DNA of 64,000 nt from NCBI GenBank assembly GCA_002375495.1, contig DFLU01000005.1, forward strand, positions 103,503-167,502, written 5' to 3'. This document shows, piece by piece, positions 29,561 through 52,426 of this stretch. A program made the position numbers and the translations under genes. The first letter of the stretch is position 1. Each line of letters begins with the position of its first letter. The notes under the pieces were generated by a model. It saw only the letters and a list, made by a program, of their open reading frames with translations, searched no databases and had not been told where the DNA came from. The DNA comes from Flavobacteriaceae bacterium UBA3611 (GTDB taxonomy: Bacteria; Bacteroidota; Bacteroidia; Flavobacteriales; Flavobacteriaceae).

Positions 29561-29572
29561 TGACATTTCTCA
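29561..29572 (+). promoter_or_regulatory. FNR-like box 1
   Basis: TGACATTTCTCA, 23 nt before TACATTGG (29596-29603), upstream of a USP gene. Confidence 0.6.
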
Positions 29573-29622
29573 TTCTTTAAAACTCTTTTCAGCATTACAT
29601 TGGCTGTCTAACCTTTAGCACG

Positions 29623-30462
29623 ATGAAAAACATATTATTGCCTACAGATTTTTCAGCAAATTCGATGAATGCAATCGATTATGCCATGCACTTTTTTGAA
29701 AATTGGGAATGCAACTTCTATATACTCAACGTGCAGAAAATTTCCGAATACATAAGTGACGATCTTGTGGCAGGTTCTAAAACCGATTCGATATACGATA
29801 GCATCGCCAGCGACAACAAAAAATTGATTCAGCAGTTGGTAAAAAAATTAAGCAAAAAGCATAAGTCACAAGGATATACTTTTCACGGATTATTCGATTA
29901 TGACGATTTCGTTTCTGCAGTAGACCAAGCCGTTACTTTCCATGCAATAGACCTTATTATCATGGGAACCAATGGCGCTACAGGAGCCAGAGAAGTACTT
30001 TTTGGTAGCAACACACTGAAAATAGTGCGCCATATAGATTGCCCAACGCTTACGATACCCGAGCACTATCGTTATACCAAGATTAACAGTGCACTTCTTA
30101 CTACGCAGCAATGTAAAGACCTTTCATTGAGAGAACTCGAAATTTTTAAAGAAATACTAAATATGCATCAATGCGAGCTCAATATCGTTGAGCTTGACGA
30201 CGATGCTATTGTGATGTCGCAAAAGAAAGACAACCCGCAATTACAGAAGCTATTTAAAGATTACGCATACAACTATTTCAGCCTGAATGCTGTTCCCGGA
30301 CTTATAGCTGTTAATACCGCAACCCAAATCTTGAAGGTTGACTTACACGCTGCATTTATTGAAAAAGAAACCTTTTTAGAGCGCCTACTATTTGGTTCGG
30401 ATGATGCGAAGGTGTTGTACCGAACACTCGTACCCCTCTTATTTTTACATCAAAACGATTAA
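29623..30462 (+). CDS. Universal stress protein (tandem USP domains)
   Basis: ILLPTDFS, DLIIMGTNGATG and GSNT...CPTLTIP motifs. Confidence 0.93.
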   Translation: MKNILLPTDFSANSMNAIDYAMHFFENWECNFYILNVQKISEYISDDLVAGSKTDSIYDSIASDNKKLIQQLVKKLSKKHKSQGYTFHGLFDYDDFVSAVDQAVTFHAIDLIIMGTNGATGAREVLFGSNTLKIVRHIDCPTLTIPEHYRYTKINSALLTTQQCKDLSLRELEIFKEILNMHQCELNIVELDDDAIVMSQKKDNPQLQKLFKDYAYNYFSLNAVPGLIAVNTATQILKVDLHAAFIEKETFLERLLFGSDDAKVLYRTLVPLLFLHQND

Positions 30463-31448
30463 GACAGCTCATTAACGGCATGTTTGCCATCAGCCCAGGC
30501 ATTTAAATTCTCAAGGGTAGCCGATGCAATATTATGCAATGCCTCACGCGTAGCAAAAGCTTGGTGGGGAGTCACTAATGTTTTGGGATGACAAAGAAGT
30601 TGGTGCAATTCCGTATCATTTGGAGCATTGTGTGATCTGTCATAAAAAAACACGCCATGTTCCCGTTCGTACACGTCTGTGGCATATCCTGAAACAAGGC
30701 CTTTGTTAAGGGCTTTTAAAATTTCAGTAGTATGTACAATACCTCCTCTTGCCACATTTACAATAATTGGTTTTTTTGAAAGTTTGGCTATATACGTTTT
30801 GTCAAAAAGATAATGAGTTAGTTGGTTTAGTGGAAGACTAATAAATATAATCTCCGCTTCGTTGGCGAGCGCATCTTTAGAAATATAGCTAACATCATAG
30901 TTGGTTATCAGCTCTTCGTTGCTACTGGTATCATTCGCCACGATGTTACATCCAAATCCGTGTAAGATTTTAACCAGCACACTTCCTATTCTACCAGTTC
31001 CCATTACGCCCACCGTTTTTCCGGTTAAATCGAATCCGATTAGATTATCTAAGAGGAAATTATCTTGAAGTGTCTGTTGCTGGGCGAGCGTTATTTTCCT
31101 GTTGAATGCCAAAAGTAATGCTATAGCATGCTCTGCAATGGCATTTGGAGAATAGCTGGGGGTGTTTGCCACCTTAAAACCGAGATGCCTGGCCGTTTTT
31201 AAATTTATGTTGTCGTGGCCTGCTGACCTCAGGGTAATATATCGCACCCCGAAATCCCTCAATTTAGTGAGTACTATGTCTGATGCGTCATCTGCCGAAA
31301 AAATAGAAATAGCATCGTAGTTTAATGCTTTCATTGCTGTTTCTGAAGTAAGCCGCTTTTCAGTATAGCTTATTTTGTGAATGGCGGCATTTGCTTTTTC
31401 AAGCAATGGTTTTTCAAAAGGTTTGGCACTATAAACGAGTACTTTCAT
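30459..31448 (-). CDS. ldhA: D-lactate dehydrogenase / D-2-hydroxyacid dehydrogenase
   Basis: LRSAGHDN, PSYSPNAIAEH, GTGRIG, VNVARG, DVYE and TPHQAF motifs. Confidence 0.8.
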   Translation of the reverse strand: MKVLVYSAKPFEKPLLEKANAAIHKISYTEKRLTSETAMKALNYDAISIFSADDASDIVLTKLRDFGVRYITLRSAGHDNINLKTARHLGFKVANTPSYSPNAIAEHAIALLLAFNRKITLAQQQTLQDNFLLDNLIGFDLTGKTVGVMGTGRIGSVLVKILHGFGCNIVANDTSSNEELITNYDVSYISKDALANEAEIIFISLPLNQLTHYLFDKTYIAKLSKKPIIVNVARGGIVHTTEILKALNKGLVSGYATDVYEREHGVFFYDRSHNAPNDTELHQLLCHPKTLVTPHQAFATREALHNIASATLENLNAWADGKHAVNELS

Positions 31449-31450
31449 GA

Positions 31451-32086
31451 TTAAAGTAGTAGTAGTTTGTTCTCTCGAAGCGAATTAAAAAGGATCTTTG
31501 TATAGGCATTTATGTTTCTGTTCACTTTGTCAGCATCTACCACTTCAATTTCACCGCGCCACAGCAATTCACGTTCTTTTCCTGGACAAATACAGTACAG
31601 TGAGGTTTCTGTGGTATAGACTTGGTATCGTTCTTTTTCCTGTTTCTGATATTCGTGTATATTGCCGTAGAAGTAATCCTCGTAGGTTGGATAATTTCTT
31701 GAAAAATTTCGATAGGCATCTACTACGGTCACTCTACTTTCAGAGCCCGTGACCTTTGTAAATAATATAGCATCAAAACCCGCATTTAGTAGTCGTTGCT
31801 CTATATTATCGAGTTGTGCGAGCGACTTTTTATTATCGGTAAACGAAGTTTCAAAGAAATCGATACTTTTTACAGCGATGACCCCTTGTTTATCTAGGTC
31901 TTCTGTCATCTTTTTTTCGTAGGTACGCCGCAATTCTGCATCTGCTGAAATACCAACCACCAACACTTTATTGGCCTCGAAGTTTACTGTATCGGGGTTT
32001 TTGTATTGCTGTACCAGCTTTGTTGAGCTGCAACCGCTTACCACCCAAAGGATAAGCACGATGCCGAGGTATATGAGTCTTTTCAT
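31451..32086 (-). CDS. Lipoprotein of unknown function
   Basis: Lipobox VSGC followed by SSTKLV. Confidence 0.75.
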   Translation of the reverse strand: MKRLIYLGIVLILWVVSGCSSTKLVQQYKNPDTVNFEANKVLVVGISADAELRRTYEKKMTEDLDKQGVIAVKSIDFFETSFTDNKKSLAQLDNIEQRLLNAGFDAILFTKVTGSESRVTVVDAYRNFSRNYPTYEDYFYGNIHEYQKQEKERYQVYTTETSLYCICPGKERELLWRGEIEVVDADKVNRNINAYTKILFNSLRENKLLLL

Positions 32087-32271
32087 GAAAATTGATTTTG
32101 TTAGATTAATTTAAAAGGTTTGTTTGCTTCTTGAACTTTATCAATTCATTAATAAAACCGTATTCGTATTTGATAAAAGTTAATTGTAGCATCCATTCTA
32201 GCATTAGGCAAATATTTTTTCTGGAGTACCTTATCGTACTATTCAGCAAGTGATGCTACATTCTCTAGGGC

Positions 32272-32709
32272 TTAATGAAGATTTTTCTGTTTGCTCTTCT
32301 TCATAATTTCTGCCAGCATCTTAAATATGGTCCGCTTGGTTTTTTTCACATCCGCATGCAAATCCATAGTACTAATCATCAACTCGTAATGGGTGTTTTT
32401 ATATTCTTTCACTTCGTTTGGAACATCAATATCATCTATCAACACTTGTAGATTGTTAGCATGCGCTTGCATTTCTTTTAATAAACGCTTAACCCTTTTG
32501 TCATATCCTCTTAACGCAATTGCTATTTGAGCAGCTTTCTCATGGGTTATATTATAAATTAGTTCTAGTGTGTCTTCAGCAACTAAGTCTCTTAAAAAAT
32601 GGAGTTCATCCTGCAAAAATTTTAATTCAGAAATACTCATCCCTATATCGTCGTGCAACCCACTAGGGTTTCTCCATTCAATGTACTTGTAATGTGTGCT
32701 TGTTTTCAT
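32272..32709 (-). CDS. Hypothetical helical protein
   Basis: 145-aa ORF with its own FNR-like box and -7-like element. Confidence 0.75.
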   Translation of the reverse strand: MKTSTHYKYIEWRNPSGLHDDIGMSISELKFLQDELHFLRDLVAEDTLELIYNITHEKAAQIAIALRGYDKRVKRLLKEMQAHANNLQVLIDDIDVPNEVKEYKNTHYELMISTMDLHADVKKTKRTIFKMLAEIMKKSKQKNLH

Positions 32710-32814
32710 GATAAATAAATTAGAAATCAGAAGAGTTCCGAAAATCTATTTACTGCCTAGCAGGTAATGCTTTAGATATACCGTAAAAATAACTGAACAG
32801 CTACCTCTTAGAAA

Positions 32815-32826
32815 TGATAATTATCA
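32815..32826 (-). promoter_or_regulatory. FNR-like box 2
   Basis: Perfect palindrome TGATAATTATCA, 23 nt from minus-strand TATTTTTA (32784-32791). Confidence 0.7.
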
Positions 32827-32899
32827 GTTTTGAAACGGCTGCTTTATTAAATTCACAGATGGATTTAACTATTTCCTCTAGAAAGAGCGTTTCGTACGG

Positions 32900-34270
32900 C
32901 TACACGAAAACAGTAACCACATCATTCAGCTTTGGTACCGTTACACGCCAAGAAAACGTAGCTTCCAGTTTTACGCTGAGTGCTTGTAATGAAGTAGGTT
33001 CACCATGAATTAGAAACGTATTTTCAGGTATATTTTTTATTTCACTCAACCAATGTAAGATCCCGTTCTGATCTGCATGGGCAGAGAGGCTTTCAATGTG
33101 TTCAACCGTAGCGTTCACTGGATAATACTTCCCGAAAAATTTCAGTTCATGTGCGCCTTCCAACAATTGTCGTCCCCTAGTGCCTTCCGCTTGATAACCC
33201 ACTAGTAGAATTGTAGTAGTTGGCACGTCGATGAGTTGTTGCATGTATGTTAGTACACGACCTCCTGTTACCATACCACTACCGGCGATTACAATTTTTG
33301 GTCTGGGGTCGTCAACTGTTTCCCATGTTTCTTTATACGATGAAACAATATGCATCCGTTTTTTCATAGCTTTAAATTCTGTGGGAGGGATTTTATGCCA
33401 TTGCGAAAACCGCTCAAAAACCCCCAGGACATTGCTACCCATAGGGCTATCTATAAATATTGGAATATTAGGGATACGCCGTTCATTATATAATTTCCAA
33501 AGAAGAAACATTAACGTTTGCAAACGTTCTACGGCAAAGGAAGGTATAATCAAAGTGCCGCGATTGTGAATTGTTTTGTTAATGAGTGCAATTAATTTTT
33601 CTGAAACACTCTCTTCTGGATGTAACTTTCCACCGTAGGTACTTTCCAAAAAAAGATAATCTGCCCATTGGGGCTTCTCTGGCGGGAACAATAACAGGTC
33701 ATTTTTCCTGCCTACATCTCCAGAAAATACAAACGTTTTACCAAAAAGCGCTAATTCGATAAAGGTAGCACCAATAATGTGACCGTTATATCGAAATCGA
33801 TATTTACAATTTTCCGAAAGCGAATGCCAGACATCTTTTTCTGCTGGCACCAACATCTTGATGGTGCGAGCGGCATCTTCAATCGTATAAAATGGCAAGG
33901 CTGGTTGGTGTTTAGAATACTTTTCTTTATTGGCACGTTCTGCATCTTCTTCATGTATTTTTGCGCTGTCCAACAATATAATTTTTGTGATTTCCAAGGT
34001 GGGTGAAGTTCCCATTATCTTACCCTGAAATCCCTGTTTCAGAAGCCTAGGTAGATAGCCTGTGTGATCTAAGTGACCATGGGTTAATAACACAGTGTCA
34101 ATGGCTGAAACCTCAAAAGATAGATCCTGCCAATTTTGCTCCCGCAATTCTTTTAGTCCCTGAAACATCCCACAATCTACAAGTATATTTTGTTCGGGTG
34201 TTTCTAATAAAAATTTAGATCCTGTGACGGTTCCCGAAGCTCCTAAAAAATGTATGTTAACAGTATTCAT
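32900..34270 (-). CDS. Metallo-beta-lactamase fold beta-CASP nuclease (YSH1/TTHA0252-like)
   Basis: Start MNTVNIHFLGA; THGHLDH, GHIIG, SGDVG, ESTYG and SAHAD motifs. Confidence 0.92.
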   Translation of the reverse strand: MNTVNIHFLGASGTVTGSKFLLETPEQNILVDCGMFQGLKELREQNWQDLSFEVSAIDTVLLTHGHLDHTGYLPRLLKQGFQGKIMGTSPTLEITKIILLDSAKIHEEDAERANKEKYSKHQPALPFYTIEDAARTIKMLVPAEKDVWHSLSENCKYRFRYNGHIIGATFIELALFGKTFVFSGDVGRKNDLLLFPPEKPQWADYLFLESTYGGKLHPEESVSEKLIALINKTIHNRGTLIIPSFAVERLQTLMFLLWKLYNERRIPNIPIFIDSPMGSNVLGVFERFSQWHKIPPTEFKAMKKRMHIVSSYKETWETVDDPRPKIVIAGSGMVTGGRVLTYMQQLIDVPTTTILLVGYQAEGTRGRQLLEGAHELKFFGKYYPVNATVEHIESLSAHADQNGILHWLSEIKNIPENTFLIHGEPTSLQALSVKLEATFSWRVTVPKLNDVVTVFV

Positions 34271-34271
34271 T

Positions 34272-35108
34272 TCAATTTGAGTTACATAGCATTGAGATTT
34301 CAGAAAGTATTTTTGCTTTGCGGGTTTCAGAAACACCCAAATGATCTAGGTAAAATACGTCGTTGGCCAATTGGCGGCACAGCACAATATCCCGACTTAG
34401 GAGAAATTGTTTTTCTCTATTAGTGAGCAAAGTTGAAACAGTTATTGGATAGAGCCCCAATCGGTCAATGCGATCCTTTAGCCCATTATCTTCAGGGTGG
34501 TCCCAACTAAGCAAATACAAACCTGCACATTTTCCGTAGGCAAGTGCATCTTTCGTAAACCGGGTGTTTGTGACCACCCAGCCTTCATTGGGGCAATTGG
34601 GTGTGTCTTTATATTGCGCAAGAATGTCTTGGTATCTAGAGTGAATGTACAAAGGCACTTTGACGTTACAGGTAGTTGATTTTTCACTATGAAATTTACA
34701 TTCGGCAACAATATGCTGCCCATTTTTAGATGCAATTACATCTACTTCATGCGACACACATTTGCCTTGCATTATTTTGCCCACCTCAACCTCATAACCA
34801 GCATATTTTAATACTGCGCCTATAAAATTTTCGAACGGAAACCCAGTGGGTCCCAACTCATAAATCGCCTTTTTGAGTTTGTATTTAGAAGCATAGATCG
34901 ACTTGCGCCTTTTCAACAGTGAGAACGCACGGTTGTAAATTTCTTTGGTAGAAATACCTTGGTACAATTCATCACGTACCACGTTGATGATATTGTCGAC
35001 AGTGAGTTCATCGGCCCCACTTCGATACAAGCTGGTCCTCAATTTGTCTATTGAAAAATCTACTTTTTCACCAGAAGACTTTATAACTTTAAAGGGTTCT
35101 TTTTTCAT
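34272..35108 (-). CDS. ATP-cone domain fused to Mrr-like PD-(D/E)xK nuclease domain
   Basis: N-terminal VIKSSGEKVDFSIDKL..SL ATP-cone pattern; then FE...EVDV...ECK nuclease motif. Confidence 0.8.
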   Translation of the reverse strand: MKKEPFKVIKSSGEKVDFSIDKLRTSLYRSGADELTVDNIINVVRDELYQGISTKEIYNRAFSLLKRRKSIYASKYKLKKAIYELGPTGFPFENFIGAVLKYAGYEVEVGKIMQGKCVSHEVDVIASKNGQHIVAECKFHSEKSTTCNVKVPLYIHSRYQDILAQYKDTPNCPNEGWVVTNTRFTKDALAYGKCAGLYLLSWDHPEDNGLKDRIDRLGLYPITVSTLLTNREKQFLLSRDIVLCRQLANDVFYLDHLGVSETRKAKILSEISMLCNSN

Positions 35109-35110
35109 AT

Positions 35111-35962
35111 TCAATTGCGGAAATCGTGCAAAGCTAATACGGGTACCTTTGCATTGAGACCCAAATCTTTTACCAAGGGTCTTGAGAAAATAGAACCAAA
35201 AAAGCTGTGTTTTTTATTAATAAAGGCAATCATTTCACTATTGCGGCTTTGCGCGAAGATGTTGAGCCCTGTTTGGACATCGGTATTTTCAAGTGTGTGG
35301 AAACTATATTTCAATCCTTCAAAACACGATTCGAGCAATGCTTTTTTCTCATTCTGTTCTTTTGAAAGTTCTTTTTCTTTTGAAATGTGCAAAATTCTAA
35401 TGGGCGCATTTGTAATGTTCGCAATTTCGTACAGATAGTTGAGCTCTCTTCGTTTATAATGCGTTTTGAAACTGGTGGGAAATACAATTTCGTTGGGTTT
35501 TTTAAAAGAGACATTTGCAGGAACCATAAATACAGGACAGTTGCGCACTTTTTCCATTATTTCGGCAGAACTCCTGCCAAAATTATAATTTTCATCATCT
35601 GTTTCTCCCCTAGAACCTATTGCTATTAGCTCGATATCGTATTTTTCAACCGTATTCTTAATTACTTCTACCAACGGACCAAATTCGCACATGAAATGAT
35701 ATGTATGGTTTGGATACTCATCTTCAAATTTCAGCTGTACCTTCAACCCCTCCATCTTTTTTTCAGAAGTATGCTTTAGTGATTGCAACACATCGCTTGA
35801 AGGTTCTGGAATCGATAAATTGTCTGTCGAGTAACCCAACGAAAAATACGTATTCAAAACATAGAATTCTACTTGTTGGTCTTTAAACAACTCAACTACA
35901 TACGCTATAGCATTTGTTGCATTTTTTGAAAAATCTGTCGGTACTAATATCCTTTTTTTCAT
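35111..35962 (-). CDS. Universal stress protein
   Basis: ILVPTDFS, IAIGSRG, CPVFMVP. Confidence 0.93.
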   Translation of the reverse strand: MKKRILVPTDFSKNATNAIAYVVELFKDQQVEFYVLNTYFSLGYSTDNLSIPEPSSDVLQSLKHTSEKKMEGLKVQLKFEDEYPNHTYHFMCEFGPLVEVIKNTVEKYDIELIAIGSRGETDDENYNFGRSSAEIMEKVRNCPVFMVPANVSFKKPNEIVFPTSFKTHYKRRELNYLYEIANITNAPIRILHISKEKELSKEQNEKKALLESCFEGLKYSFHTLENTDVQTGLNIFAQSRNSEMIAFINKKHSFFGSIFSRPLVKDLGLNAKVPVLALHDFRN

Positions 35963-36019
35963 CTTGATGAGCTTTATGGTTCTTCGTATAAAAATAAGCC
36001 CGAAACAGCCGTTTTACTA

Positions 36020-36031
36020 TGATATTTATCA
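36020..36031 (-). promoter_or_regulatory. FNR-like box 3
   Basis: TGATATTTATCA, 23 nt from minus-strand TATTTTTA (35989-35996); overlaps the upstream USP stop codon. Confidence 0.7.
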
Positions 36032-36877
36032 GTCTTGGGCAGGTACTATCAAAAATGGAATAAGCGAGAATTTTGCAATGTCTTTTACCGTAGCCTCCCT
36101 AAATAACCGCACAAAAACATTGTGCTTGTAATAGATCATTGCCAACAGATCTATATTTTCTTTTTGTATGTATGATGTAATTGCATTGTATGTGTCTGAA
36201 GTGCCCGGCAACCAATTGTTTTCTGGGTTCGTTTCTTCTAAGATTTCATGAAGTTGATGTGCGTTGGCACGTTGCTCGTCTGACTTTTTTTCCTTTTTTT
36301 GAACGTACACCACCTTCACGGTCGCATTTGTTTTTCCTACTAGTTCTAACAAGGGTTCAAGTTCAACTTTTGAGTATGGTCTCTTAAATCCTGTGGCAAA
36401 GGCAATTTTCTCTACCGATTTGAATTCGAAACCCTGGGGAATGATCAATAAGGATGCTTTCTTTATTTTGCGTATCATCGCAAGGGTATTGCTTCCAACT
36501 AAAATATCTGCAGCTCCGGTACTGCCTTTGTTACCCATAACGACAAGATCTGCCTGTTCTTTAACTATTAATTTATTTATTGCTCTTGCTAACGTGAGCG
36601 AGGTAGCTATAGTTTTATAGCTGTGATTGGCATTTGGAACGTCCTTCGCAATGGCATGTTTTACTTCATCACATTGTTCTTCGTAAGTCGAATAGAATTC
36701 TGCAACAACAGCTTCGGTTTTTGCAATATCTACCCGGCTGGTCATATGGCTTACTTGGTTTTCAAAAGAGTGCACAATAATAAATGTACATTCTGTTTCA
36801 GCATACAACTGTGCTGCATATTGTAATGCGGCGTATGCATTCGCTGAAAAATCTGTGGGAACAAGAATTGTTTTCAT
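36029..36877 (-). CDS. Universal stress protein
   Basis: ILVPTDFS, DLVVMGNKGSTG, GSNT. Confidence 0.93.
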   Translation of the reverse strand: MKTILVPTDFSANAYAALQYAAQLYAETECTFIIVHSFENQVSHMTSRVDIAKTEAVVAEFYSTYEEQCDEVKHAIAKDVPNANHSYKTIATSLTLARAINKLIVKEQADLVVMGNKGSTGAADILVGSNTLAMIRKIKKASLLIIPQGFEFKSVEKIAFATGFKRPYSKVELEPLLELVGKTNATVKVVYVQKKEKKSDEQRANAHQLHEILEETNPENNWLPGTSDTYNAITSYIQKENIDLLAMIYYKHNVFVRLFREATVKDIAKFSLIPFLIVPAQD

Positions 36878-36889
36878 AAAGGGAATGTT

Positions 36890-37738: not shown

Positions 37739-37766
37739 AGTATTCTTAATTTAAGTGAAGTTATTG

Positions 37767-44247: not shown

Positions 44248-44533
44248 TTTTAATTCTATTATCAACTCTGAAATACCTGTATTGGTCGATTTTTTTGCTG
44301 AATGGTGCGGGCCGTGCAAAGCACTTGCGCCTATTCTTAAAGACGTCAAGGCAGAAATGGGTGATGCTGTAAAAATTGTAAAGATTGATGTTGATAAAAA
44401 CCAGCCACTTGCAGCACAATATCAAGTGCGTGGTGTACCAACAATGCTCTTGTTTAAAAATGGAAAGCAAGTATGGAGACAAAGCGGGGTGTTGCAAAAA
44501 CAAGAAATCATAAATAGAATTCGCGCTAAGTGA
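44237..44533 (+). CDS. trxA: Thioredoxin
   Basis: WCGPC active site and GVPT. Confidence 0.93.
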
Positions 44534-44534
44534 A

Positions 44535-45197: not shown

Positions 45198-45245
45198 GAG
45201 TACAGAATTATTTAATGATTAAAAACACTTAGAACAAAGCAATTT

Positions 45246-45650
45246 ATGTCGTATTCCATTTGTGCCACAGCAACTCCTGAAAAAGAAGGCGAAATCATTT
45301 TCAATGAAACTTCCGCTTCGTTTGGTATCACAACCAGCAGTGACCAAGAACTCCCTAGTCCTGCAGATGTATTCTTGGGCGCACTCGCCGCTTGCATTCT
45401 TAAGAACGTACAGCGCTTCTCAGGAATGATGAAATTTGAATATCAAGAAGCCAACGTCACGGTTTCTGCAACCTATGCCCAAAAACCGTCTAGGTTAGAA
45501 AACATTACCTATGAGCTTGTGATTTTAAGTAGTGAAGAAAAGATTAATACGCCGTTGTTAAAACGGAATCTTTCAAAATTTGGGACTATTTACAACATGA
45601 TAGCAAAAGCCACCGAAGTTTCTGGAACGGTAACCCATAACAGAATCTAA
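45246..45650 (+). CDS. OsmC family protein
   Basis: SPADVFLGALAAC and GTIYN motifs; only one of the two canonical Cys residues is evident. Confidence 0.8.
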   Translation: MSYSICATATPEKEGEIIFNETSASFGITTSSDQELPSPADVFLGALAACILKNVQRFSGMMKFEYQEANVTVSATYAQKPSRLENITYELVILSSEEKINTPLLKRNLSKFGTIYNMIAKATEVSGTVTHNRI

Positions 45651-45723
45651 AAGTGTAGTCATTATTAGTATAATTACCTTTCGTATTGCAGCGTATTTTT
45701 TTAAAAATTTAATATCCGATATT

Positions 45724-46179
45724 ATGATCAAGACCTTAGACGATAAAGAAAAATTGTTACTGCTCAGTTCTAATTATATTGGCAGTATGGGCTATATATT
45801 TCAAGACAAATGTTTTGTAGTACCCATCACCTATTTCTATAACCAAGAACAACATAACATTATCGGTTATTCAGCCAACGGACATAAAATTAATGCACTA
45901 CGAAAGAATAATTCCGTATCCCTATCTGTGACCGATATCGACTCGGTAAACGACTGGAAATCGGTATTAGTCCATGGCAGGTATGAGGAACACGAAGGAA
46001 CTATCGCTACCGCATTGCTGCATCAATTTTCATTAGGGGTAAAAGATCTTATTCTACGGAAAGAGTTACGGGATCTAGATTTTATAAGTCAGTTTTCCAG
46101 CAAGATTCACATCGACGATATGCCCATAATTTTTACTATCAATATCGAAGAAATTACTGGAAGAATGCGGAAGTTTTAA
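45724..46179 (+). CDS. Pyridoxamine 5'-phosphate oxidase-like FMN-binding protein
   Basis: VVPITY, GHKINALRKN..V, WKSVLVHGRYEE, ITGR motifs. Confidence 0.88.
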   Translation: MIKTLDDKEKLLLLSSNYIGSMGYIFQDKCFVVPITYFYNQEQHNIIGYSANGHKINALRKNNSVSLSVTDIDSVNDWKSVLVHGRYEEHEGTIATALLHQFSLGVKDLILRKELRDLDFISQFSSKIHIDDMPIIFTINIEEITGRMRKF

Positions 46180-46180
46180 T

Positions 46181-46214
46181 AAAAAAAGGAACCCTTTCAC
46201 AAGAATTCCTTTTT
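46181..46214. terminator. Bidirectional terminator between convergent genes
   Basis: AAAAAAGGAA...TTCCTTTTT stem with A/T tails on both sides. Confidence 0.55.
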
Positions 46215-46234
46215 CCATCCTACTGAAACACCCA

Positions 46235-47068
46235 CTACACCTTAAAGGTCATTATGGGTAAATCACTATGATTCACGATAGCTTCGCCAATATTTTCAGA
46301 AAAGAAATGAGCCAACCCCCTTCTTCCGTGGGTAGGTATTACCACCATATCTGCATCAACTTCATCACTAAAGCTATAGATACCATGTTCTAATCTATAG
46401 TCACAGTAATATGCGGTATTATCATACACATCTGTATTTTCTACACCGCTGTGTAACATAAACTTAAAGGCCCGTTCTTGCATTTCTTGATTGCTCAAGA
46501 ATTTCTCTGGGGTATTGATAAAAACCACTTGAAACTCGGCACCAATTGATTCGAAGAATTCCCAAGCTTTTTTGAATGCCCCTGCAAAATCTATATTGAA
46601 ATCGCAAGCAAACACCACCTTGTCCATTTTAAAATCTTTGTTACGGTTTTTTACCACCAAAACAGGAATTTCTGAAGTGCGCACCACCTTTTCTGTATTA
46701 GATCCTACAAAAACTTCTTTTAAGCCACTGGCACCGTGTGATCCCATCACGATTAGATCTGCTTTAAAATCGTTGGCAACCGTATTTATTTCGTGAAACT
46801 CCTTATAATTTTGTACTGTAGTTTCAACAGTGATGCCTTTTAAATAATCTTTGTCCAGGAAATCGCTAAAACGCTTTTCAGCTAGTTTCATATAGTAGAT
46901 AGCTTCCAACATTTCTCTAGACTCATCTTTAGTGAGAATTGCTTCCGAGAGCCCCATCATGTGCAAAACAACCAGTGAAGCATTGTTTTTTTTGGCTAAT
47001 GTAGCAGCCACTTCAAGGGCGTATTCTGAGTGATCAGAAAAATCTATAGGTATCAGTATTTTTTTCAT
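46235..47068 (-). CDS. Universal stress protein
   Basis: ILIPIDFS, DLIVMGSHGASG, GSNTEKVVR, PTHGRRG. Confidence 0.95.
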   Translation of the reverse strand: MKKILIPIDFSDHSEYALEVAATLAKKNNASLVVLHMMGLSEAILTKDESREMLEAIYYMKLAEKRFSDFLDKDYLKGITVETTVQNYKEFHEINTVANDFKADLIVMGSHGASGLKEVFVGSNTEKVVRTSEIPVLVVKNRNKDFKMDKVVFACDFNIDFAGAFKKAWEFFESIGAEFQVVFINTPEKFLSNQEMQERAFKFMLHSGVENTDVYDNTAYYCDYRLEHGIYSFSDEVDADMVVIPTHGRRGLAHFFSENIGEAIVNHSDLPIMTFKV

Positions 47069-47380
47069 CTAAGAGGATATGTTTTGGTTCGTAAATTTTG
47101 CTTTTCGCTTTTTTAATTGCTTTTCGAGGTCTGAAATGGTTTCTTTTACAGCCATCTCATAATTTTTTTCGTTGGAAGCTGCAAAAATTTTAGGTCCCGG
47201 TAAGCTCAGTTCCATTTCGCAGATTTGTCCTTTTTCGGTAGGATCATTCTCTTGTTTAAAGAAAACATCGGCTCTAATTACCCATTCATATTTTTTTGCG
47301 AGTCGTTGTAACTTCTTAGAAGTATAATCAACCATGCTTTCGCTGGTTTTCATTTTTACAAATTGAATATCTATAGTCAT
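47069..47380 (-). CDS. hpf: Ribosome hibernation factor (short HPF/RaiA)
   Basis: Start MTIDIQF (alternative 47395); YTSKKLQRL, ICEMELSLPG..IFA, AVKETISDLEKQLKKRK S30AE pattern. Confidence 0.85.
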   Translation of the reverse strand: MTIDIQFVKMKTSESMVDYTSKKLQRLAKKYEWVIRADVFFKQENDPTEKGQICEMELSLPGPKIFAASNEKNYEMAVKETISDLEKQLKKRKAKFTNQNISS

Positions 47381-47434
47381 AGCGTTTCGTTTCATTGTTT
47401 CTTCAAAAATAAAAAGCAACCCTACTTTAAACTA

Positions 47435-47446
47435 TGATAAATATCA
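47435..47446 (-). promoter_or_regulatory. FNR-like box 7
   Basis: TGATAAATATCA, 23 nt from a perfect -7 element TATTTTTG (47404-47411, minus strand). Confidence 0.75.
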
Positions 47447-47477
47447 GTTACAACAATTGAGACTGAGCACTCATTAT

Positions 47478-47987
47478 TTAGTTTATCATACTTTCCATTT
47501 TCAAAAGTATCGCATCAGACACATCACTTGCATTTTCAAGAATCGATTCACCGGCCATGGCATCAATACCTTCAATTTTATTATTGCCAGCGCCAGAAGT
47601 AGCATACACTATCATTTTGTGCTTCCTTTCGCTATTATTTTCGATAAATTCCAACACCGCCGCTGGAGGTTTCCCATATTCCCAAGTATGCAAGATCACA
47701 ATCACATTGTATTTAGAAGAATCCACCTGTGGTAACTGCGATACGTCGATTGCTTTTATATAGACCGAATCCTTTTTATAAAAATTGAAAATATTGGTCA
47801 CCACAGCATCTTTAAAACCACTTCCCTGTGTGGCCACGAGGACCTTAGTGGTTAGGTTCGGACTATGGATTGCTTTGCTTTGCACCACCTCCATTTCATA
47901 GGTTATTTTATACCAAACTGCGAATGCTACTAAGAAGGCAGCAAGGATACCTAAGAATAAGACCCGATTTTTAAGTTTTGATTTCAT
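47478..47987 (-). CDS. Membrane-anchored flavodoxin-like protein
   Basis: N-terminal TM; KVLVATQGSGFK, YNVIVILHTWE, ATSGAG alpha/beta pattern. Confidence 0.65.
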   Translation of the reverse strand: MKSKLKNRVLFLGILAAFLVAFAVWYKITYEMEVVQSKAIHSPNLTTKVLVATQGSGFKDAVVTNIFNFYKKDSVYIKAIDVSQLPQVDSSKYNVIVILHTWEYGKPPAAVLEFIENNSERKHKMIVYATSGAGNNKIEGIDAMAGESILENASDVSDAILLKMESMIN

Positions 47988-48037
47988 TTTCAGTAAATTA
48001 AAAGTCTAAAGTTAGTTTCTGAAACAACTTTTTACTA

Positions 48038-48049
48038 TGATATTTATCA
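48038..48049 (-). promoter_or_regulatory. FNR-like box 8
   Basis: TGATATTTATCA, 23 nt from minus-strand TAACTTTA (48007-48014). Confidence 0.7.
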
Positions 48050-48124
48050 CCTCCAAAAAAGTCGCAATGGTTCTAGCGATGTAAGTTCAAAAAGTGGGAG
48101 ATTTGATGACTTCAATTCCGTTTA

Positions 48125-48136
48125 TGACCAAAATCA
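48125..48136 (+). promoter_or_regulatory. FNR-like box 9
   Basis: TGACCAAAATCA, 23 nt before AATCTTTA (48160-48167), upstream of the patatin gene. Confidence 0.55.
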
Positions 48137-48237
48137 TTGCTATAGCGTCCATTTTTTTTAATCTTTATATAAATTAGTTACAGATTTGTATTTGCTACTA
48201 TTTCAGAAATAAACATTCAGAAAGTAAAGGACTGCGT

Positions 48238-49005
48238 ATGAAAACAGGATTGGTTCTATCGGGTGGTGGCGCGAGAGGTGTTGCGCACATAGGGGTGCTA
48301 AAAGCGCTCGAAGAACGGCAAATAGAAATTACACATCTATCAGGCACCAGTGCTGGCGCCATTGTTGGTGCGCTTTATGCTGCGGGGCATTCTTGGGAAA
48401 CCATACTCACCTTTTTTAAGAAGGTACCTATTTTTCATTACAAGCGCTATGCGTATAACAAGCCTGGATTTATAGACACCATAAAGTTTTACAGTGATTT
48501 TTTCGGTTTCTTTGAAGAAGACGATTTTGACTCTCTACAACGGAAACTTTACATTCCTGCTACAAATCTTATTGAAGGAACCGAACGCGTATTTGACGAA
48601 GGACAACTCATTAAACCCGTACTCGCTTCAGCAGCATTTCCAGGTTTGTTTACGCCAGTTCTTATAGATGAAATTCCCTATGTTGATGGAGGAGTACTGA
48701 ACAATTTCCCAGTAGAGCCCCTTAAAAAACAGTGTGACACACTCATCGGCGTATATGTAAATCCGTTGGAAAAAATAGATGTTTCCGAACTGAAACATTC
48801 GTACCAAGTAGCCAATCGGGCTTATCACATTAGTTTTGGCAGCCATTGTGTCGCGAAATTCAACGAATTAGATCTGTTGATCGCTCCCAAAAATATCAAT
48901 CGGTATGGCATGTTCAACTTAAAGAATATTGATGCTATTTTTGAAATCGGCTACAATGCTGCCGTGGCCTCTTTAAAAGAATTTGTACTGCCCAAGCAAC
49001 GTTAG
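48238..49005 (+). CDS. Patatin-like phospholipase
   Basis: GGGARG, GTSAG and DGG motifs. Confidence 0.95.
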   Translation: MKTGLVLSGGGARGVAHIGVLKALEERQIEITHLSGTSAGAIVGALYAAGHSWETILTFFKKVPIFHYKRYAYNKPGFIDTIKFYSDFFGFFEEDDFDSLQRKLYIPATNLIEGTERVFDEGQLIKPVLASAAFPGLFTPVLIDEIPYVDGGVLNNFPVEPLKKQCDTLIGVYVNPLEKIDVSELKHSYQVANRAYHISFGSHCVAKFNELDLLIAPKNINRYGMFNLKNIDAIFEIGYNAAVASLKEFVLPKQR

Positions 49006-49030
49006 AGATTTGTAATTGCACACTTGCTAA

Positions 49031-50020
49031 TCATTGGTTAGCTGCTTTTTCTTGGCGTTTGGCCTGGCGTTCCAATTTTCTAAAATAACCGCGAAATAAA
49101 AAGTTATGTTTTAATGCTTCCATGTTCTCGTTCAACTTTTGGGAAGCTTCTTTTATTTGCTGCATGGTCGAGTCTATCGTCTTCGGAAGGGCTTCATCTT
49201 GGGTAAGATAATTAAAGGTGCTTTTTTTAGTATTTATTTCAGCAACCATTCCCTCTAGCTGCCCCATTGTTTCTGAAACCGTACGGCTAGACTTTTCTAG
49301 GTTCGATACCATACGTTGCATTTTGTTCCCGGTCACGGTATCGTTTAGCAGGACACCCGCAGCACTTTTTTCCATGTTTATTTTTGAAAGTTTCTCGTGC
49401 AAAGAATTTATGAGTGTATTGGCGCCTTGGGTCGTATTTTTTAAGTTTTCTAAGCTGGCATGAATGTTTTGCGTGAGCGTGGTATCTGCTATTAATGCAC
49501 CCAATGTGCCCTCCCCTTCTAAAATTTTATTTGTTATTTTTAGTAAGTCGGCGGTAAGTAATGCCGCATTTTCATTGGTGACATTAAGGGTTGAGAGCAT
49601 GTCGTCTGCACCAATTTTACTATAGGTTGGTATGGTATCTCCAGAAGTGATGGCGAATCGGTTTTCGTTACCCGGCAAAATGTTTACCACCATGCTCCCT
49701 ACCAAGCCATCAGACCCAATGGTAGCAATCGCATCTTTTTTGATAAAGGCACCTGTTTTTTCTTCAACCATCATTTGTACTACAATGGTGGCCTCACCTA
49801 CCATTTCAATAGCAGCCACGGTGCCTACATTAATACCAGAATAGCGCACGTTGTTTCCCAACTGTAGGCCATTTACATTTTGAAATACTGCAAATACCTG
49901 CATATTCTTGCTAAAGATATGTTGTCTGTTTCCTATAAAGTAGAGCGCGGCCACTAAAATTAGGGTGCCTAGTACTACAAAAAATCCGACGCGGGTTTTG
50001 TGGGAAGCTGATTTTTTCAT
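49031..50020 (-). CDS. mlaD: MCE/MlaD family protein
   Basis: N-terminal TM; GLQLGNNVRYSGINVGTV and GLVG motifs, followed by a helical tail. Confidence 0.88.
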   Translation of the reverse strand: MKKSASHKTRVGFFVVLGTLILVAALYFIGNRQHIFSKNMQVFAVFQNVNGLQLGNNVRYSGINVGTVAAIEMVGEATIVVQMMVEEKTGAFIKKDAIATIGSDGLVGSMVVNILPGNENRFAITSGDTIPTYSKIGADDMLSTLNVTNENAALLTADLLKITNKILEGEGTLGALIADTTLTQNIHASLENLKNTTQGANTLINSLHEKLSKINMEKSAAGVLLNDTVTGNKMQRMVSNLEKSSRTVSETMGQLEGMVAEINTKKSTFNYLTQDEALPKTIDSTMQQIKEASQKLNENMEALKHNFLFRGYFRKLERQAKRQEKAANQ

Positions 50021-50025
50021 GATTT

Positions 50026-50763
50026 CTATGTTTTAAAAAAGGCCTTTACTTTTGGATCTTGCGACTGTGAAAGCTCCTCGAAGGTACCTTCGGCATAATT
50101 AATTCCGTCTACCAATAAAATCATACGGTTACTAATTACTCGTGCACAATCTACATCGTGGGTAATGATGAGTGACGATGTTTGGTAGGTCTGTTGTATG
50201 TGGCGCATTAACTGAATGATTTCTTTTGAAGTGATGGGGTCGAGGCCCGTAGTGGGCTCGTCGTACAAAATGATTTTGGGTTTTAAAATGAGTGCCCGTG
50301 CCAGGGCAACTCTGCGTTGCATTCCGCCAGATAATTCTGCCGGCATTAGGTCGATGGCATGTGCCAAGCCAACATTTTCAAGGGCTTCTACCACCAATGC
50401 TTCGGTAGTTTGGGATGTTTTTATTTTATCCCTATTTCTCCGTAACGGAAACTCTAAATTTTCACGCACCGTCATAGAATCGTACAGCGCACTTCCTTGG
50501 AAAAGAAAACCGATTTCAGTACGCAAGACATCCAACTCGTTTTGGCCTAGGGAAACGATGTCAAAATCTTTAATTTTAATCGTCCCGCTATCGGCTGCCA
50601 TCAATCCGACGAGGCATTTAATCATTACCGATTTCCCCGAGCCTGACTTTCCCATGATCACGAGGTTTTCCCCTTCAAACAATTGGAGACTAAAGCCATT
50701 CAACACATGGTTTTCGCCAAAGCTTTTGCGCAATTCGTTTATTTCTAATACAGGCTTTTTCAT
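50026..50763 (-). CDS. mlaF: ABC transporter ATPase, MlaF/Mkl family
   Basis: GKSGSGKS, FQGSALYDSMTV, LSGGM, YDEPTTGLDP. Confidence 0.9.
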   Translation of the reverse strand: MKKPVLEINELRKSFGENHVLNGFSLQLFEGENLVIMGKSGSGKSVMIKCLVGLMAADSGTIKIKDFDIVSLGQNELDVLRTEIGFLFQGSALYDSMTVRENLEFPLRRNRDKIKTSQTTEALVVEALENVGLAHAIDLMPAELSGGMQRRVALARALILKPKIILYDEPTTGLDPITSKEIIQLMRHIQQTYQTSSLIITHDVDCARVISNRMILLVDGINYAEGTFEELSQSQDPKVKAFFKT

Positions 50764-51542
50764 ATCTCGAAGAAAATATCAGTAAGAAATACAGCAATAA
50801 AATCGATCACGAAGATGAGCATGGAGGTATACACGACGGCAGCATTTGAGGCCTCACCTACGCCAACGGTTCCTTTTGAACTGTGGTACCCCTTATAGCA
50901 TCCTACCAGACCAATGGCGAAACCGAAAAAAAATGATTTGACGGTGGCCGGAATAATATCACTGAACTTCAGTGCATCGAATACTTTATTAAAATACAGC
51001 AGGTATGAAACTTCGCCTTTTAAATTTTCAACAATAGCAGAGCCAAAAAGCGCCACTGCATCACCCATAATGATGAGCAGCGGGAGCATTAAGGTAGTGG
51101 CTAAAATTCGGGTGACCACCAAATATTTGAAGGGGTTGGTTCCCGAAACTTCCATCGCATCAATTTGCTCAGTTACTTTCATACTGCCCAGCTCGGCACC
51201 AATACCTGAACCGATGCGTCCTGCACAAATAAGCGCAATGATTACGGGACCGATTTCGCGCACTATCGAAATACTGACCATAGAAGGCATCCAAGAGACG
51301 GCGCCAAATTCTAGTAAGGTAGGTCTGGATTGCAGCGTAAACACCAACCCAAGAATAAAACCTGTTACACCCACCAGGAGAAATGAACGGTTTCCCATTT
51401 GATAACATTGGCGGAGCAGTTCTTTCCATTCAAAGGGCGTTGTAAAGACTTCTTTAAAGAACCGTATGGCGAAATAGGTCATATCGCCAATTTCTTCAAA
51501 AAAGCGTTTTGTCTTTACCGTGATGGTGTTTGTTTGATGCAA
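50760..51542 (-). CDS. mlaE: ABC transporter permease, MlaE family
   Basis: REIGPV, GRIGSGIGAELGSMKVTEQIDAMEV motif. Confidence 0.92.
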   Translation of the reverse strand: MHQTNTITVKTKRFFEEIGDMTYFAIRFFKEVFTTPFEWKELLRQCYQMGNRSFLLVGVTGFILGLVFTLQSRPTLLEFGAVSWMPSMVSISIVREIGPVIIALICAGRIGSGIGAELGSMKVTEQIDAMEVSGTNPFKYLVVTRILATTLMLPLLIIMGDAVALFGSAIVENLKGEVSYLLYFNKVFDALKFSDIIPATVKSFFFGFAIGLVGCYKGYHSSKGTVGVGEASNAAVVYTSMLIFVIDFIAVFLTDIFFEI

Positions 51543-51592
51543 TGAATGCGTATTAAAAAACTAAATATAGCTGTCACGTTTCGAGCAAGAAA

Positions 51593-51604
51593 TGATATCT
51601 ATCA
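51593..51604 (-). promoter_or_regulatory. FNR-like box 10
   Basis: TGATATCTATCA, 23 nt from minus-strand TATATTTA (51562-51569). Confidence 0.7.
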
Positions 51605-51637
51605 GTTGTCCCTTCTTTCCATTCCGGTTAGGCATTC

Positions 51638-52366
51638 TTACAGATTACTGATAATGCTAGCCAGACCTATTCCCAAGATCAGGAATAGCACGATGTATCG
51701 AAACTGTTCTTGCGACATTTTGTTGAGAATTAGTTTCCCGATCCAAGTGCCTAAAATTCCGACCACGATCAGAATGGGAATAAGGTATAAGAGTTCTATT
51801 TTTATATAGCCATTAAAGTAGTAGACAACAGTCCGGCTCACATCTACCCCTAAATCGATGATCGCAGAAGTAGCGATAAACTTGTCTTTATTCATCTTAA
51901 AGGCCGCCAAGGTAATACCGCGAATCGCACCACCTGTACCTAAAACCCCTGCGCTTAGGCCAGAAAGCACGCCACCAGCAACAGCATTCTTAGTCGTTGG
52001 TTTTACCGCCAGTTTTTTAAAAATCAGAAACAACAGACTTAAAACAACGAGAAAGATTCCAAGGCTATATGTTAAGATAGTCGGATCTATATATTTACTT
52101 ATAAATCCGCCGATAATCACAAAAAGTACCGCTGGCACCCCTAGGGTTAAGATGACTTTCTTATCGATTCCTTTTCTGAAAAATGCAATTTTGGTAAGAT
52201 TACTAGAAACATGGTAGAGCGCAGTAATCCCTAACACCGATTGGAATTCTAGAAAAAAGTTGGCTACGGGCACAAAAAACACCGATGATCCGAATCCGCC
52301 CACCGTACCAAAAATTTCAGCCAGCAATGACAGAATGATAAAAACGGGAAGGTAGCGTGATAGCAT
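51638..52366 (-). CDS. TauE/SafE (TSUP) family membrane transporter
   Basis: Start MLSRYLP (the ORF-track start overlaps the -7 element); GGFGSS and GTGGAIR repeats; multi-TM. Confidence 0.88.
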   Translation of the reverse strand: MLSRYLPVFIILSLLAEIFGTVGGFGSSVFFVPVANFFLEFQSVLGITALYHVSSNLTKIAFFRKGIDKKVILTLGVPAVLFVIIGGFISKYIDPTILTYSLGIFLVVLSLLFLIFKKLAVKPTTKNAVAGGVLSGLSAGVLGTGGAIRGITLAAFKMNKDKFIATSAIIDLGVDVSRTVVYYFNGYIKIELLYLIPILIVVGILGTWIGKLILNKMSQEQFRYIVLFLILGIGLASIISNL

Positions 52367-52414
52367 GTTTGTTACATATTGAACAAACATAGCACAATGG
52401 ATACATTAAGGTTA

Positions 52415-52426
52415 TGACATTTATCA
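52415..52426 (-). promoter_or_regulatory. FNR-like box 11
   Basis: TGACATTTATCA, 23 nt from a perfect -7 element TATGTTTG (52384-52391, minus strand). Confidence 0.75.

Follow-up and report, generated by a model that had tools for sequence, protein, structure and literature searches.

The stretch of DNA analysed here, hereafter the window, is a 64-kb piece of contig DFLU01000005.1 of Flavobacteriaceae bacterium UBA3611 (assembly GCA_002375495.1, positions 103,503 to 167,502, forward strand), and all that is said below about this genome is confined to it. Between 29.5 and 52.5 kb the window contains an island in which 11 transcription units, each headed by an FNR-like box standing exactly 23 nt from a −7-like promoter element, are grouped around the genes of a two-component system, namely a histidine kinase with a haem-type PAS domain and a regulator in which a receiver (REC) is joined to a body of the FNR/CRP type. 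We consider it likely that this 23-kb island, with its 11 units arranged round their own two-component system, serves a marine flavobacterium, related to Patiriisocius and Ulvibacter, as its regulon for oxygen limitation. Its features are listed below. Gene identities in the window come from Pfam domain searches unless stated otherwise, boxed promoters are numbered P1 to P11, and scores in bits refer to a position weight matrix (PWM) introduced further on.

29561 to 29603, plus strand: promoter P1, box TGACATTTCTCA, 23 nt, −7 element TACATTGG; borderline, 16.3 bits
29623 to 30462, plus strand: tandem Usp, target of P1 (Pfam Usp, 4e-17)
30459 to 32709, minus strand: hyp145 (145 aa), a lipoprotein (211 aa) and a D-2-hydroxyacid dehydrogenase
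32784 to 32826, minus strand: promoter P2, box TGATAATTATCA, 23 nt, TATTTTTA; 33.6 bits
32900 to 35962, minus strand: operon of a Usp, an ATP-cone/Mrr_cat nuclease and a beta-CASP metallo-beta-lactamase RNase
35989 to 36031, minus strand: promoter P3, box TGATAAATATCA, 23 nt, TATTTTTA; 32.5 bits
36029 to 38612, minus strand: three tandem-Usp genes (37767, 36890 and 36029), whose translations resemble the Pfam-confirmed Usp
38638 to 38680, minus strand: promoter P4, box TGATAAATATCA, 23 nt, TAGCTTTG; 32.2 bits
38724 to 39560, minus strand: tandem Usp directly downstream of the regulator
39578 to 39620, minus strand: promoter P5, box TGATAATTGTCA, 23 nt, TACTTTTG; 37.1 bits, the best PWM score of the window
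39635 to 40681, minus strand: regulator, 348 aa, with REC, a cNMP-binding-like beta-barrel and HTH_Crp
40678 to 42192, minus strand: histidine kinase, PAS (haem-type)-PAS-HisKA-HATPase
42198 to 42205, minus strand: −7 element of the kinase operon, TACCTTTA, 14 nt from the shared box and 5 nt before the ATG
42220 to 42262, plus strand: promoter P6, box TGATAAATGTCA, 23 nt, TATTTTTA; 33.3 bits; the box is common to the divergent kinase operon
42283 to 46179, plus strand: seven-gene operon of hyp135, DUF3298, a DUF998 membrane protein, thioredoxin, a DeoC-family aldolase, OsmC and a PNPOx-like protein (Pyridox_ox_2)
46235 to 47395, minus strand: the hibernation factor HPF (Ribosomal_S30AE), then a tandem Usp
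47404 to 47446, minus strand: promoter P7, box TGATATTTATCA, 23 nt, TATTTTTG; 35.8 bits
47478 to 47987, minus strand: hyp169, a membrane-anchored protein of 169 aa
48007 to 48049, minus strand: promoter P8, box TGATAAATATCA, 23 nt, TAACTTTA; 27.0 bits
48125 to 48167, plus strand: candidate promoter P9, box TGACCAAAATCA, 23 nt, AATCTTTA; weak and doubtful, 10.8 bits
48238 to 49005, plus strand: patatin-like phospholipase (Pfam, 1.8e-33)
49031 to 51542, minus strand: MlaE-MlaF-MlaD lipid ABC transporter operon
51562 to 51604, minus strand: promoter P10, box TGATAGATATCA, 23 nt, TATATTTA; 27.5 bits
51638 to 52366, minus strand: TauE/SafE (TSUP) permease
52384 to 52426, minus strand: promoter P11, box TGATAAATGTCA, 23 nt, TATGTTTG; 22.0 bits

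The pattern TGAYNNNNRTCA (TGAY-N4-RTCA) matches the window 12 times where 4.1 matches would be expected, a count reached in none of 100 shuffled windows (maximum 9). Ten of the 12 exact matches fall between 29.5 and 52.4 kb, at coordinates already proposed in an earlier sequence-only reading of this DNA; the eleventh box of that reading, at 29561, is a near-match with one mismatch (CTCA), as it had been described. The remaining two exact boxes (11359–11370 and 57452–57463) are situated within or next to unrelated genes and lack a −7 partner at every sensible spacing, which is consistent with the roughly four matches expected by chance. On the gene-facing strand, each of the 11 island boxes is followed, at exactly 23 nt, by a TAnnTTTR-like element, which at four of them (38669, 39609, 47435 and 52415) is a perfect TAnnTTTG. 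When spacings from 15 to 31 were scanned across the window, 10 exact-box hits were obtained at 23 and between 0 and 3 at each of the other spacings, and no composite site made of an exact box, 23 nt and a −7 element was found in the window outside 29.5–52.5 kb. The earlier reading had claimed the same coordinates, the common spacing, the four perfect elements and the lack of such pairing elsewhere in the window, and on all of these points it holds.

The set can also be recovered from foreign sequence. A PWM built only from 427 sites of other genomes, and therefore independent of the window, returned as its 11 best sites exactly the 11 boxes. Nine of them score between 22 and 37 bits, as against a maximum of 15.7 bits in a background of 20 random windows; these nine may be regarded as solid, while 29561 is borderline and the patatin box at 48125 doubtful. 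The list of targets that had been put forward thus stands as regards the gene calls, which Pfam confirmed (three of the Usp being recognized by likeness of their translations), and is doubtful as regards the box of the patatin gene, which is boxed in only one other locus. Taken as a whole, the 11 boxed promoters almost certainly constitute a genuine co-regulated promoter set. General scans of the island were silent: an E. coli-type sigma-70 promoter scan gave no enrichment (56 matches for 59 expected) and was uninformative, as expected for Bacteroidetes, a terminator scan likewise gave no enrichment (15 for 14.8 expected), and an Rfam scan gave no match inside the island.

Thousands of full-length homologues of the regulator exist, with at least 67% identity across Flavobacteriaceae genera, and orthologues were found in Patiriisocius (89%), Ulvibacter, Aquimarina, Lacinutrix, Mesonia, Maribacter, Arenibacter, Aequorivita and Dokdonia. 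The comparative set comprised 1.52 Mb of DNA lying within 10 kb of the orthologous regulator in 80 Flavobacteriaceae genomes of about 20 genera. In this set, a box combined with an exact TANNTTTR at spacing 23 occurs 427 times, compared with 23 times at most for any other spacing between 15 and 31, and all 80 loci contain at least one such composite site, so that the excess at spacing 23 is found both in the window and round the regulator in 80 of 80 genomes. The logo of these sites reads aaC-TGAT-wwwT-ATCA-T, followed by a T-rich stretch and TAnTTTR. Over the 10 kb on each side, site density ranges from 0.16 to 0.56 per kb and peaks at the regulator gene itself (0.4–0.56 per kb), indicating that physical clustering round the two-component system is a trait of the family. 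The kinase gene is present in 77 of the 80 loci. Recent horizontal acquisition of the island was considered and rejected, since its GC content (38.4%) is close to that of its flanks (40.4% and 36.6%) and the clustering is seen across the family.

Near the regulator in the 80 genomes, the first gene downstream of the boxed promoter most often encodes a Usp (about 184 boxed occurrences) or an orthologue of hyp135, the product of the 42283 gene (61). There follow HPF (24), FixS/CcoS (19), DUF3298 (18), a 94-aa membrane protein (16), Hsp20 (10), thioredoxin (8), DUF1706/DinB and HMA (7 each), DUF2267 (6), PNPOx-like proteins (5) and HemN (3). The Usp gene at 38724–39560 is the commonest boxed target elsewhere, with 85 boxed orthologues in the 80 loci. 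The hyp135 gene (135 aa, 42283–42690, plus strand), for which no Pfam, NCBIfam or PDB sequence match was obtained, is the most conserved target after Usp, being boxed in 61 of the 80 genomes and always divergent from the kinase. In one Aquimarina locus, a boxed ccoS stands next to the regulator and is followed by ccoNO, ccoQ, ccoP, ccoG, fixH and a DsbD_2 gene, and HemN and a Usp also adjoin the regulator. The regulon is generally not confined to an island, and in other genomes it reaches respiratory genes.

A census made independently of the regulator points in the same direction. The exact 20-base composite CTGATAAATATCAT-N22-TANNTTTG was sought in metagenome contigs and found at 120 loci, where the first downstream open reading frames (ORFs) include Usp (25), HPF (4), HemN (4), CcoS (2) and MlaE (2). 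After Pfam checks, NirS (cytochrome cd1), a NirK-like multicopper oxidase with a cytochrome c domain, a NorC-like cytochrome c and NapC/NirT were recognized, together with an Sdh/Frd cytochrome b, SCO1/SenC, a fatty-acid desaturase, a BcrAD/BadFG activase, PPDK and a Crp-family factor. A fusion of a metallo-beta-lactamase and a rhodanese domain, resembling persulfide dioxygenase, recurs in this census (loci L081, L088, L114, L154 and L194), as does a TonB protein downstream of the composite promoter (L082, L094, L101, L183 and L188), and locus L024 contains an SQR-like gene. These three kinds of gene suggest a link between the regulon and sulfide detoxification as well as energy-coupled uptake. 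The TGAT-N4-ATCA core is therefore found upstream of cco, hemN, nirS, nirK-like and norC-like genes, as in an FNR/FixK-box regulon, and, judged by their predicted products, the boxed targets represent the signature content of FNR, Anr and FixK regulons together with a dormancy set.

The following mechanism would account for these features. Upon departure of O2 from the haem of a FixL/DosP-type PAS domain (PAS1, the first of the two), the soluble kinase (40678–42192) would autophosphorylate and pass the phosphate to Asp53 of the co-transcribed regulator (39635–40681). In the latter, the receiver would occupy the N-terminal place held in FNR by the Fe-S cluster, followed by the barrel, the dimerisation helix and the helix-turn-helix, and its phosphorylation is predicted to drive dimerisation and DNA binding. 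The dimer would then settle on (C)TGAT-N4-ATCA(G), centred at −41.5, and substitute for a missing −33 element. In the present organism the output would be a survival set of seven Usp, the hibernation factor, the RNase/nuclease pair and the redox proteins thioredoxin, OsmC and PNPOx, as well as lipid upkeep by Mla and the patatin; in relatives it would extend to the cbb3 oxidase, hemN, Hsp20 and denitrification genes. We hold this entire chain, from O2 through the haem kinase and the REC-FNR protein to class II activation, to be probable, and the role of the embedded REC-CRP/FNR protein in a clustered low-oxygen programme, which the sequence-only reading had already proposed, gains support from the 80 loci, the FNR-type helix, the haem-PAS kinase and the targets seen in relatives.

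The kinase gene overlaps the start of the regulator gene by 4 nt. We read the enzyme as soluble, from its translation and not from a transmembrane prediction, because it shows no evident hydrophobic segment that could span a membrane. In the PDB, PAS1 is matched best by the RmFixL haem domain (1d06, 3e-18), E. coli DosP (4e-16) and BjFixL (3e-13). H68 corresponds to the proximal His of FixL in the F-alpha helix and is conserved in 32 of 33 orthologues, and R88 corresponds to the FG-loop Arg (Rm R214, Bj R220), conserved in 28 of 33. The three sequence marks of a FixL-type haem-PAS, a homologous PAS domain, the proximal His and the FG-loop Arg, are all found here, and we infer that PAS1 binds haem with O2 as its ligand. 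The kinase nevertheless resembles FixL in its sensor domain only and is not a FixL orthologue.

In the regulator, Pfam recognizes Response_reg (4.5e-27), cNMP_binding (1e-16) and HTH_Crp_2 (3.5e-13). E9, D10, D53 and K105 of the receiver are invariant in 121 close homologues, and D11 and S83 nearly so; the acidic pocket, the acceptor Asp, the Ser/Thr and the Lys of a two-component response regulator are thus in place, with a cognate kinase alongside. The remainder shows the beta-barrel, the long dimerisation helix and the C-terminal winged helix-turn-helix of the CRP/FNR family, and the closest solved sequence to the C-terminal 216 residues is that of Aliivibrio fischeri FNR (5cvr, 1e-15), followed by CRP, GlxR and FixK2. 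The recognition helix GIATESLIRTLS aligns with GLTVETISRLLG of FNR in such a way that E314 and R318 coincide with FNR E209 and R213 (CRP E181/R185), which read the TGA half-site, and a Thr stands at the position of the CRP Arg (R180) that gives CRP its GTGA preference. This helix is invariant in the 121 close homologues, which matches the invariant TGA/TCA core of the box; in a more distant set (the window protein and 139 homologues of 35–50% identity) E314 is kept in 139 of 140 sequences and R318 in all 140.

The regulator departs from the established subgroups of its family. It contains a single Cys (C52, within the receiver) and its N-terminus is the receiver itself, so that neither the cysteine cluster of the FNR subgroup nor an FNR-type [4Fe-4S] site is found. 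The cAMP cassette of the CRP subgroup is also lacking: the corresponding segment reads P217-Y218-E/Q219-E220-S/T221-A222, with an invariant Glu at the presumed position of the Arg, a correspondence read from the sequence without a printed CRP alignment. An AlphaFold model based on a 52-sequence alignment (mean pLDDT 82) predicts the receiver at residues 1–130, a disordered linker at 130–139, the barrel at 156–234, the long helix at 261–290 and the winged helix-turn-helix at 297–347. The top Foldseek matches are CRP, GlxR, FixK2 and NtcA, CRP-family bodies of about 200–230 residues; none of the 50 targets listed is long enough to include a receiver as well, and no solved REC-CRP fusion was therefore seen among them. 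A search of 1.84 billion representatives (50% identity clusters) yielded 1,524 clusters below 1e-30, which indicates that the REC-FNR/CRP architecture is widespread, and of the best 150 nearly all are full length. NCBIfam has no dedicated model for this architecture.

According to the mapped promoters of Flavobacterium psychrophilum, the sigma-A box TAnnTTTG lies at −12 to −5 (PMC9723704). With the 23-nt spacing, a −7 box so placed would put the 12-mer at −47 to −36, with its centre at −41.5, where class II CRP/FNR activators canonically bind; the boxed promoters would accordingly have a class II-like activator layout, provided that the −7 box lies at −12 to −5 here too. The core TGAT-N4-ATCA is invariant, whereas of the outer positions the upstream one is C in 64% and the downstream one T in 97% of the sites. 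In promoters with spacing 24, a T is still found 23 nt before the −7 element (91%), and the base adjoining the box is G. Since this T keeps a constant distance from the −7 element and not from the site of the regulator, it is, at −35, a feature of the promoter, perhaps the remnant of a −33 element, and the regulator itself seems to prefer C...G flanks round the box. Calibration for a −33 TTTG on 1,733 non-box TAnnTTTG matches in these loci gave no peak.

The box shared by the kinase operon and hyp135 merits separate comment. A box lies upstream of the kinase in 55 loci, and the divergent arrangement with hyp135 is seen in 50 of these. In 33 relatives the kinase-side −7 box stands at a spacing of 24–25 from the shared box, with the ATG 4 nt later in 28 of the 33, so that a leaderless mRNA in the same register is predicted, in keeping with the −12 to −5 placement mapped in F. 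psychrophilum. In 17 other relatives the kinase-side spacing is 10–12 (15 in two of them), and in the window it is 14, where a leaderless kinase mRNA is likewise predicted; at such short distances the regulator would lie over the −33 region of its own operon. It is tempting to speculate that autoregulation may be positive in some lineages and negative in others.

Evidence of expression comes from one marine metatranscriptome (Logan contigs), in which the locus is carried by a few contigs of low depth that give no strand, transcription start site or condition. Island contigs occur only on the Usp genes 35111 and 37767 (37875–38608), on hyp135-DUF3298-DUF998 (42285–43148), on HPF and Usp 46235 (46282–47390, the deepest contig) and on hyp169; none was found on the kinase, regulator, Mla, TauE or patatin genes. 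The start sites predicted for these units, 42267 and 47399, lie just beyond the contig ends at 42285 and 47390. These data are compatible with the model, albeit weakly, owing to the low depth and the absence of strand and condition. Two further runs from one organism cover 32600–52550 evenly and at high depth, with 95–99% identity, many single-nucleotide polymorphisms and single-base deletions; they are probably derived from the genomic DNA, and not the RNA, of closely related strains.

A number of points weigh against an oxygen-limitation regulon governed by this pair of proteins. Two of the 11 boxes (29561 and 48125) score in or near the range of random sequence. The 64-kb window contains no cco, hemN, hsp20 or other respiratory gene, so that the link to oxygen is drawn, for this organism, from the orthology of regulator, kinase and box, and the expression data amount to the few contigs just described, of low depth and with neither strand nor condition. 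The kinase reaches 104.8 bits with the NCBIfam model of FixL (NF041777), for which the cut-off is 850, and conservation is lacking at its counterpart of BjFixL Arg206. Besides O2, haem-PAS domains are able to signal NO, CO or redox state. Other inputs could enter through the second PAS domain of the kinase or through the strongly conserved pocket of the beta-barrel (F206, G208, F209 and E220), and the box could also be recognized by CRP/FNR paralogues encoded at other places in the genome.

Some of these points lead to the explanation that survives best after the one we favour, namely that the signal is not O2 itself but NO, CO, redox or energy state, perceived through the haem-PAS domain, the second PAS domain or a ligand of the barrel. 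Related haem-PAS and haem-GAF sensors (DosS/DosT and FixL) do respond to NO and CO, and genes for nirS, nirK-like and norC-like proteins are among the boxed ones; moreover, the residues of the barrel pocket are nearly invariant even though the cAMP-binding Arg is missing. However, the respiratory genes boxed most often are those for cbb3 maturation and hemN, hallmarks of O2-limitation control by FixK, FNR and Anr, and PAS1 is best aligned with the O2 sensors FixL and DosP. Furthermore, F. psychrophilum up-regulates its cbb3 oxidase as well as haem synthesis under O2 limitation, the regulator being left unnamed (PMC9723704). A signal other than O2 thus appears unlikely.

Alternatively, the boxes may be read by an unlinked CRP/FNR factor, for example a one-component protein of the FNR/Dnr type, the REC-CRP protein having another role or being one of several readers. 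A classical Crp-family gene encoding 217 residues is indeed preceded by the composite motif in one metagenome locus, and the E..R recognition pair is common to many members of the family. Yet the REC-CRP gene sits at the peak of box density in 80 of 80 genomes, its recognition helix is as invariant as the core of the box, and it is the only CRP-family gene in the window, a second one being found nearby in just one of the 80 loci; another reader is consequently quite improbable. That the box is an operator of a repressor released under stress can be given hardly any credit, because, although the kinase-side box lies 10–14 nt from the −7 element and over the −33 region in the window and 17 relatives, the 427 target promoters fix the box at −41.5 immediately upstream of a region without a TTTG −33 element, which is the classical layout of an activator, with a single-nucleotide phasing that a repressor would not need.

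Some features of the island deserve mention beside the regulatory circuit that we favour. It contains seven tandem Usp genes, of which those at 37767, 36890 and 36029 have orthologues in 78–79 of the 80 loci. The nuclease pair formed by the ATP-cone/Mrr_cat protein and the beta-CASP RNase (32900–35114) is found near the regulator in 21–24 of the 80 loci, and its association with a Usp hints at programmed turnover of RNA or nucleotides in hypoxic arrest; the lxa locus of Burkholderia, discussed below, likewise includes a metal-dependent RNase induced by low oxygen (PMC3721108). Downstream of P2, the lipoprotein and D-2-hydroxyacid dehydrogenase genes would share the operon of hyp145, membership being presumed only, in view of a 185-nt gap after hyp145. 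The latter gave a sub-threshold Pfam hit and no NCBIfam match, and its orthologues lie downstream of a box in four other loci. No Pfam or NCBIfam hit was obtained for hyp169.

Several start codons of the initial ORF list probably require correction. The kinase would start at the ATG at 42192 (MEVFKK..., M3 of the listed ORF), and the alignments of its orthologues begin at residue 3 of that ORF. HPF would start at an ATG (47395 or 47380) and not at the TTG at 47419. The TauE/SafE permease would start at 52366, because the listed ATG falls within the −7 element. The DUF4412 lipoprotein probably starts at the Met of its signal peptide, at about 29477, which makes box 1 intergenic. Apart from the island, the window contains a SAM-II riboswitch (Rfam RF01726, 48.3 bits for a gathering score of 44) at 454–559 on the plus strand, just upstream of a 418-aa ORF (618–1874). 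A cassette at 52710–54715 (plus strand), adjoining the right end of the island, encodes a ThsB-like TIR protein, a SLATT_3/SLATT_1 effector with two transmembrane segments and a further TIR protein; it lies in the part of the window with the lowest GC content (33%) and has the look of a small islet of anti-phage defence.

In the sea, Flavobacteriaceae have a major part in the breakdown of organic matter from algae and particles, and the family includes important pathogens of fish. Hypoxia develops in particles, biofilms and infected tissue, and we know of no named regulator for low-oxygen sensing and survival in these 'strict aerobes'. The locus described here offers a complete circuit that lends itself to testing, with a sensor, an unusual fusion regulator and a DNA site phased to the −7 element with single-nucleotide precision, and the regulon may be predicted genome-wide from sequence alone in hundreds of species. 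The promoter logic of Bacteroidota is poorly known, and the locus yields a rule for promoters that depend on an activator; if correct, this would be the first such (class II-like) architecture to be defined for the unusual sigma-A of Bacteroidetes, and it could supply a ready-made low-oxygen-inducible promoter for Bacteroidota genetics. In a literature search that left most subscription journals outside its reach, no account of the regulator, the kinase or the motif was found for Flavobacteria or Bacteroidota, in agreement with the novelty presumed by the sequence-only reading.

That reading had called the island DosR-like. The term is apt for gene content only. As in the DosR/DosS/DosT system of Mycobacterium tuberculosis, kinases based on haem (a cofactor presumed in the flavobacterial case) would switch on a survival set rich in Usp, with proteins resembling hibernation factors and PNPOx/nitroreductases and, in flavobacterial relatives, Hsp20. 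However, DosS and DosT bind haem in a GAF domain, whereas the flavobacterial kinase has PAS domains, and DosR, of the NarL/LuxR type, has another motif, of 20 bp, whereas here the regulator carries HTH_Crp and the motif is FNR-like; the island thus does not belong to the DosR group. The likeness is an analogy, and comparison of the regulatory parts, which reveals no homology, points to functional convergence.

The closest described analogue of the clustered island is the lxa locus of Burkholderia cenocepacia, a contiguous island of about 50 co-regulated genes, among them six Usp, an alpha-crystallin, the metal-dependent RNase and a cation ATPase (PMC3721108). That locus contains CRP/Anr-type regulators and two-component systems, a TGA-N6-TCA motif occupies 17 of its intergenic sites, and the host, an obligate aerobe, requires the locus to survive anoxia (PMC3721108). 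The two islands nevertheless belong to different phyla and use different types of promoter. The flavobacterial one is smaller, and its regulator is a fusion, while the regulators of lxa are separate proteins that have not been assigned to the motif. With FNR of E. coli and Aliivibrio and Anr of Pseudomonas, the flavobacterial regulator shares the Glu and Arg of the recognition helix, the TGA-N6-TCA core and the predicted centre at −41.5, and the targets of Anr also include Usp, cbb3 and hemN. It differs from them in that a phosphorylatable receiver takes the place of the N-terminal Cys cluster; with no such cluster and a single Cys, O2 would not be sensed by an Fe-S cluster within the regulator.

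Besides FNR and Anr, it is FixL-FixJ-FixK of rhizobia and Caulobacter that offers a comparison between homologues. Both systems have a haem-type PAS kinase with the same proximal His and FG-loop Arg, a factor of the CRP/FNR type that reads, or in the flavobacterial case would read, a box similar to TTGAT-N4-ATCAA, and fixNOQP/ccoNOQP, fixGHIS/ccoGHIS and hemN among their targets. In the flavobacterial system, however, receiver and CRP/FNR body form one protein, and there is neither a FixJ with its LuxR-type output nor a separate transcriptional step producing FixK; its kinase is not a FixL orthologue, its promoters use the −7 box of Bacteroidetes sigma-A, and where the FixK box has its outer T/A there is a preference for C/G. 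With the receiver fused directly to an FNR-type body, neither FixJ nor an Fe-S cluster would be required. Whether REC-FNR/CRP hybrids constitute a large class of response regulators that, together with a FixL-like kinase, act as one-step master oxygen regulators of aerobic Bacteroidota is a proposition on which we hold the balance to be even. If it is true, such hybrids control the cbb3 oxidase, haem synthesis, denitrification and the Usp/HPF dormancy set, and the three-tier FixL-FixJ-FixK cascade has here been collapsed into a single phosphotransfer step.

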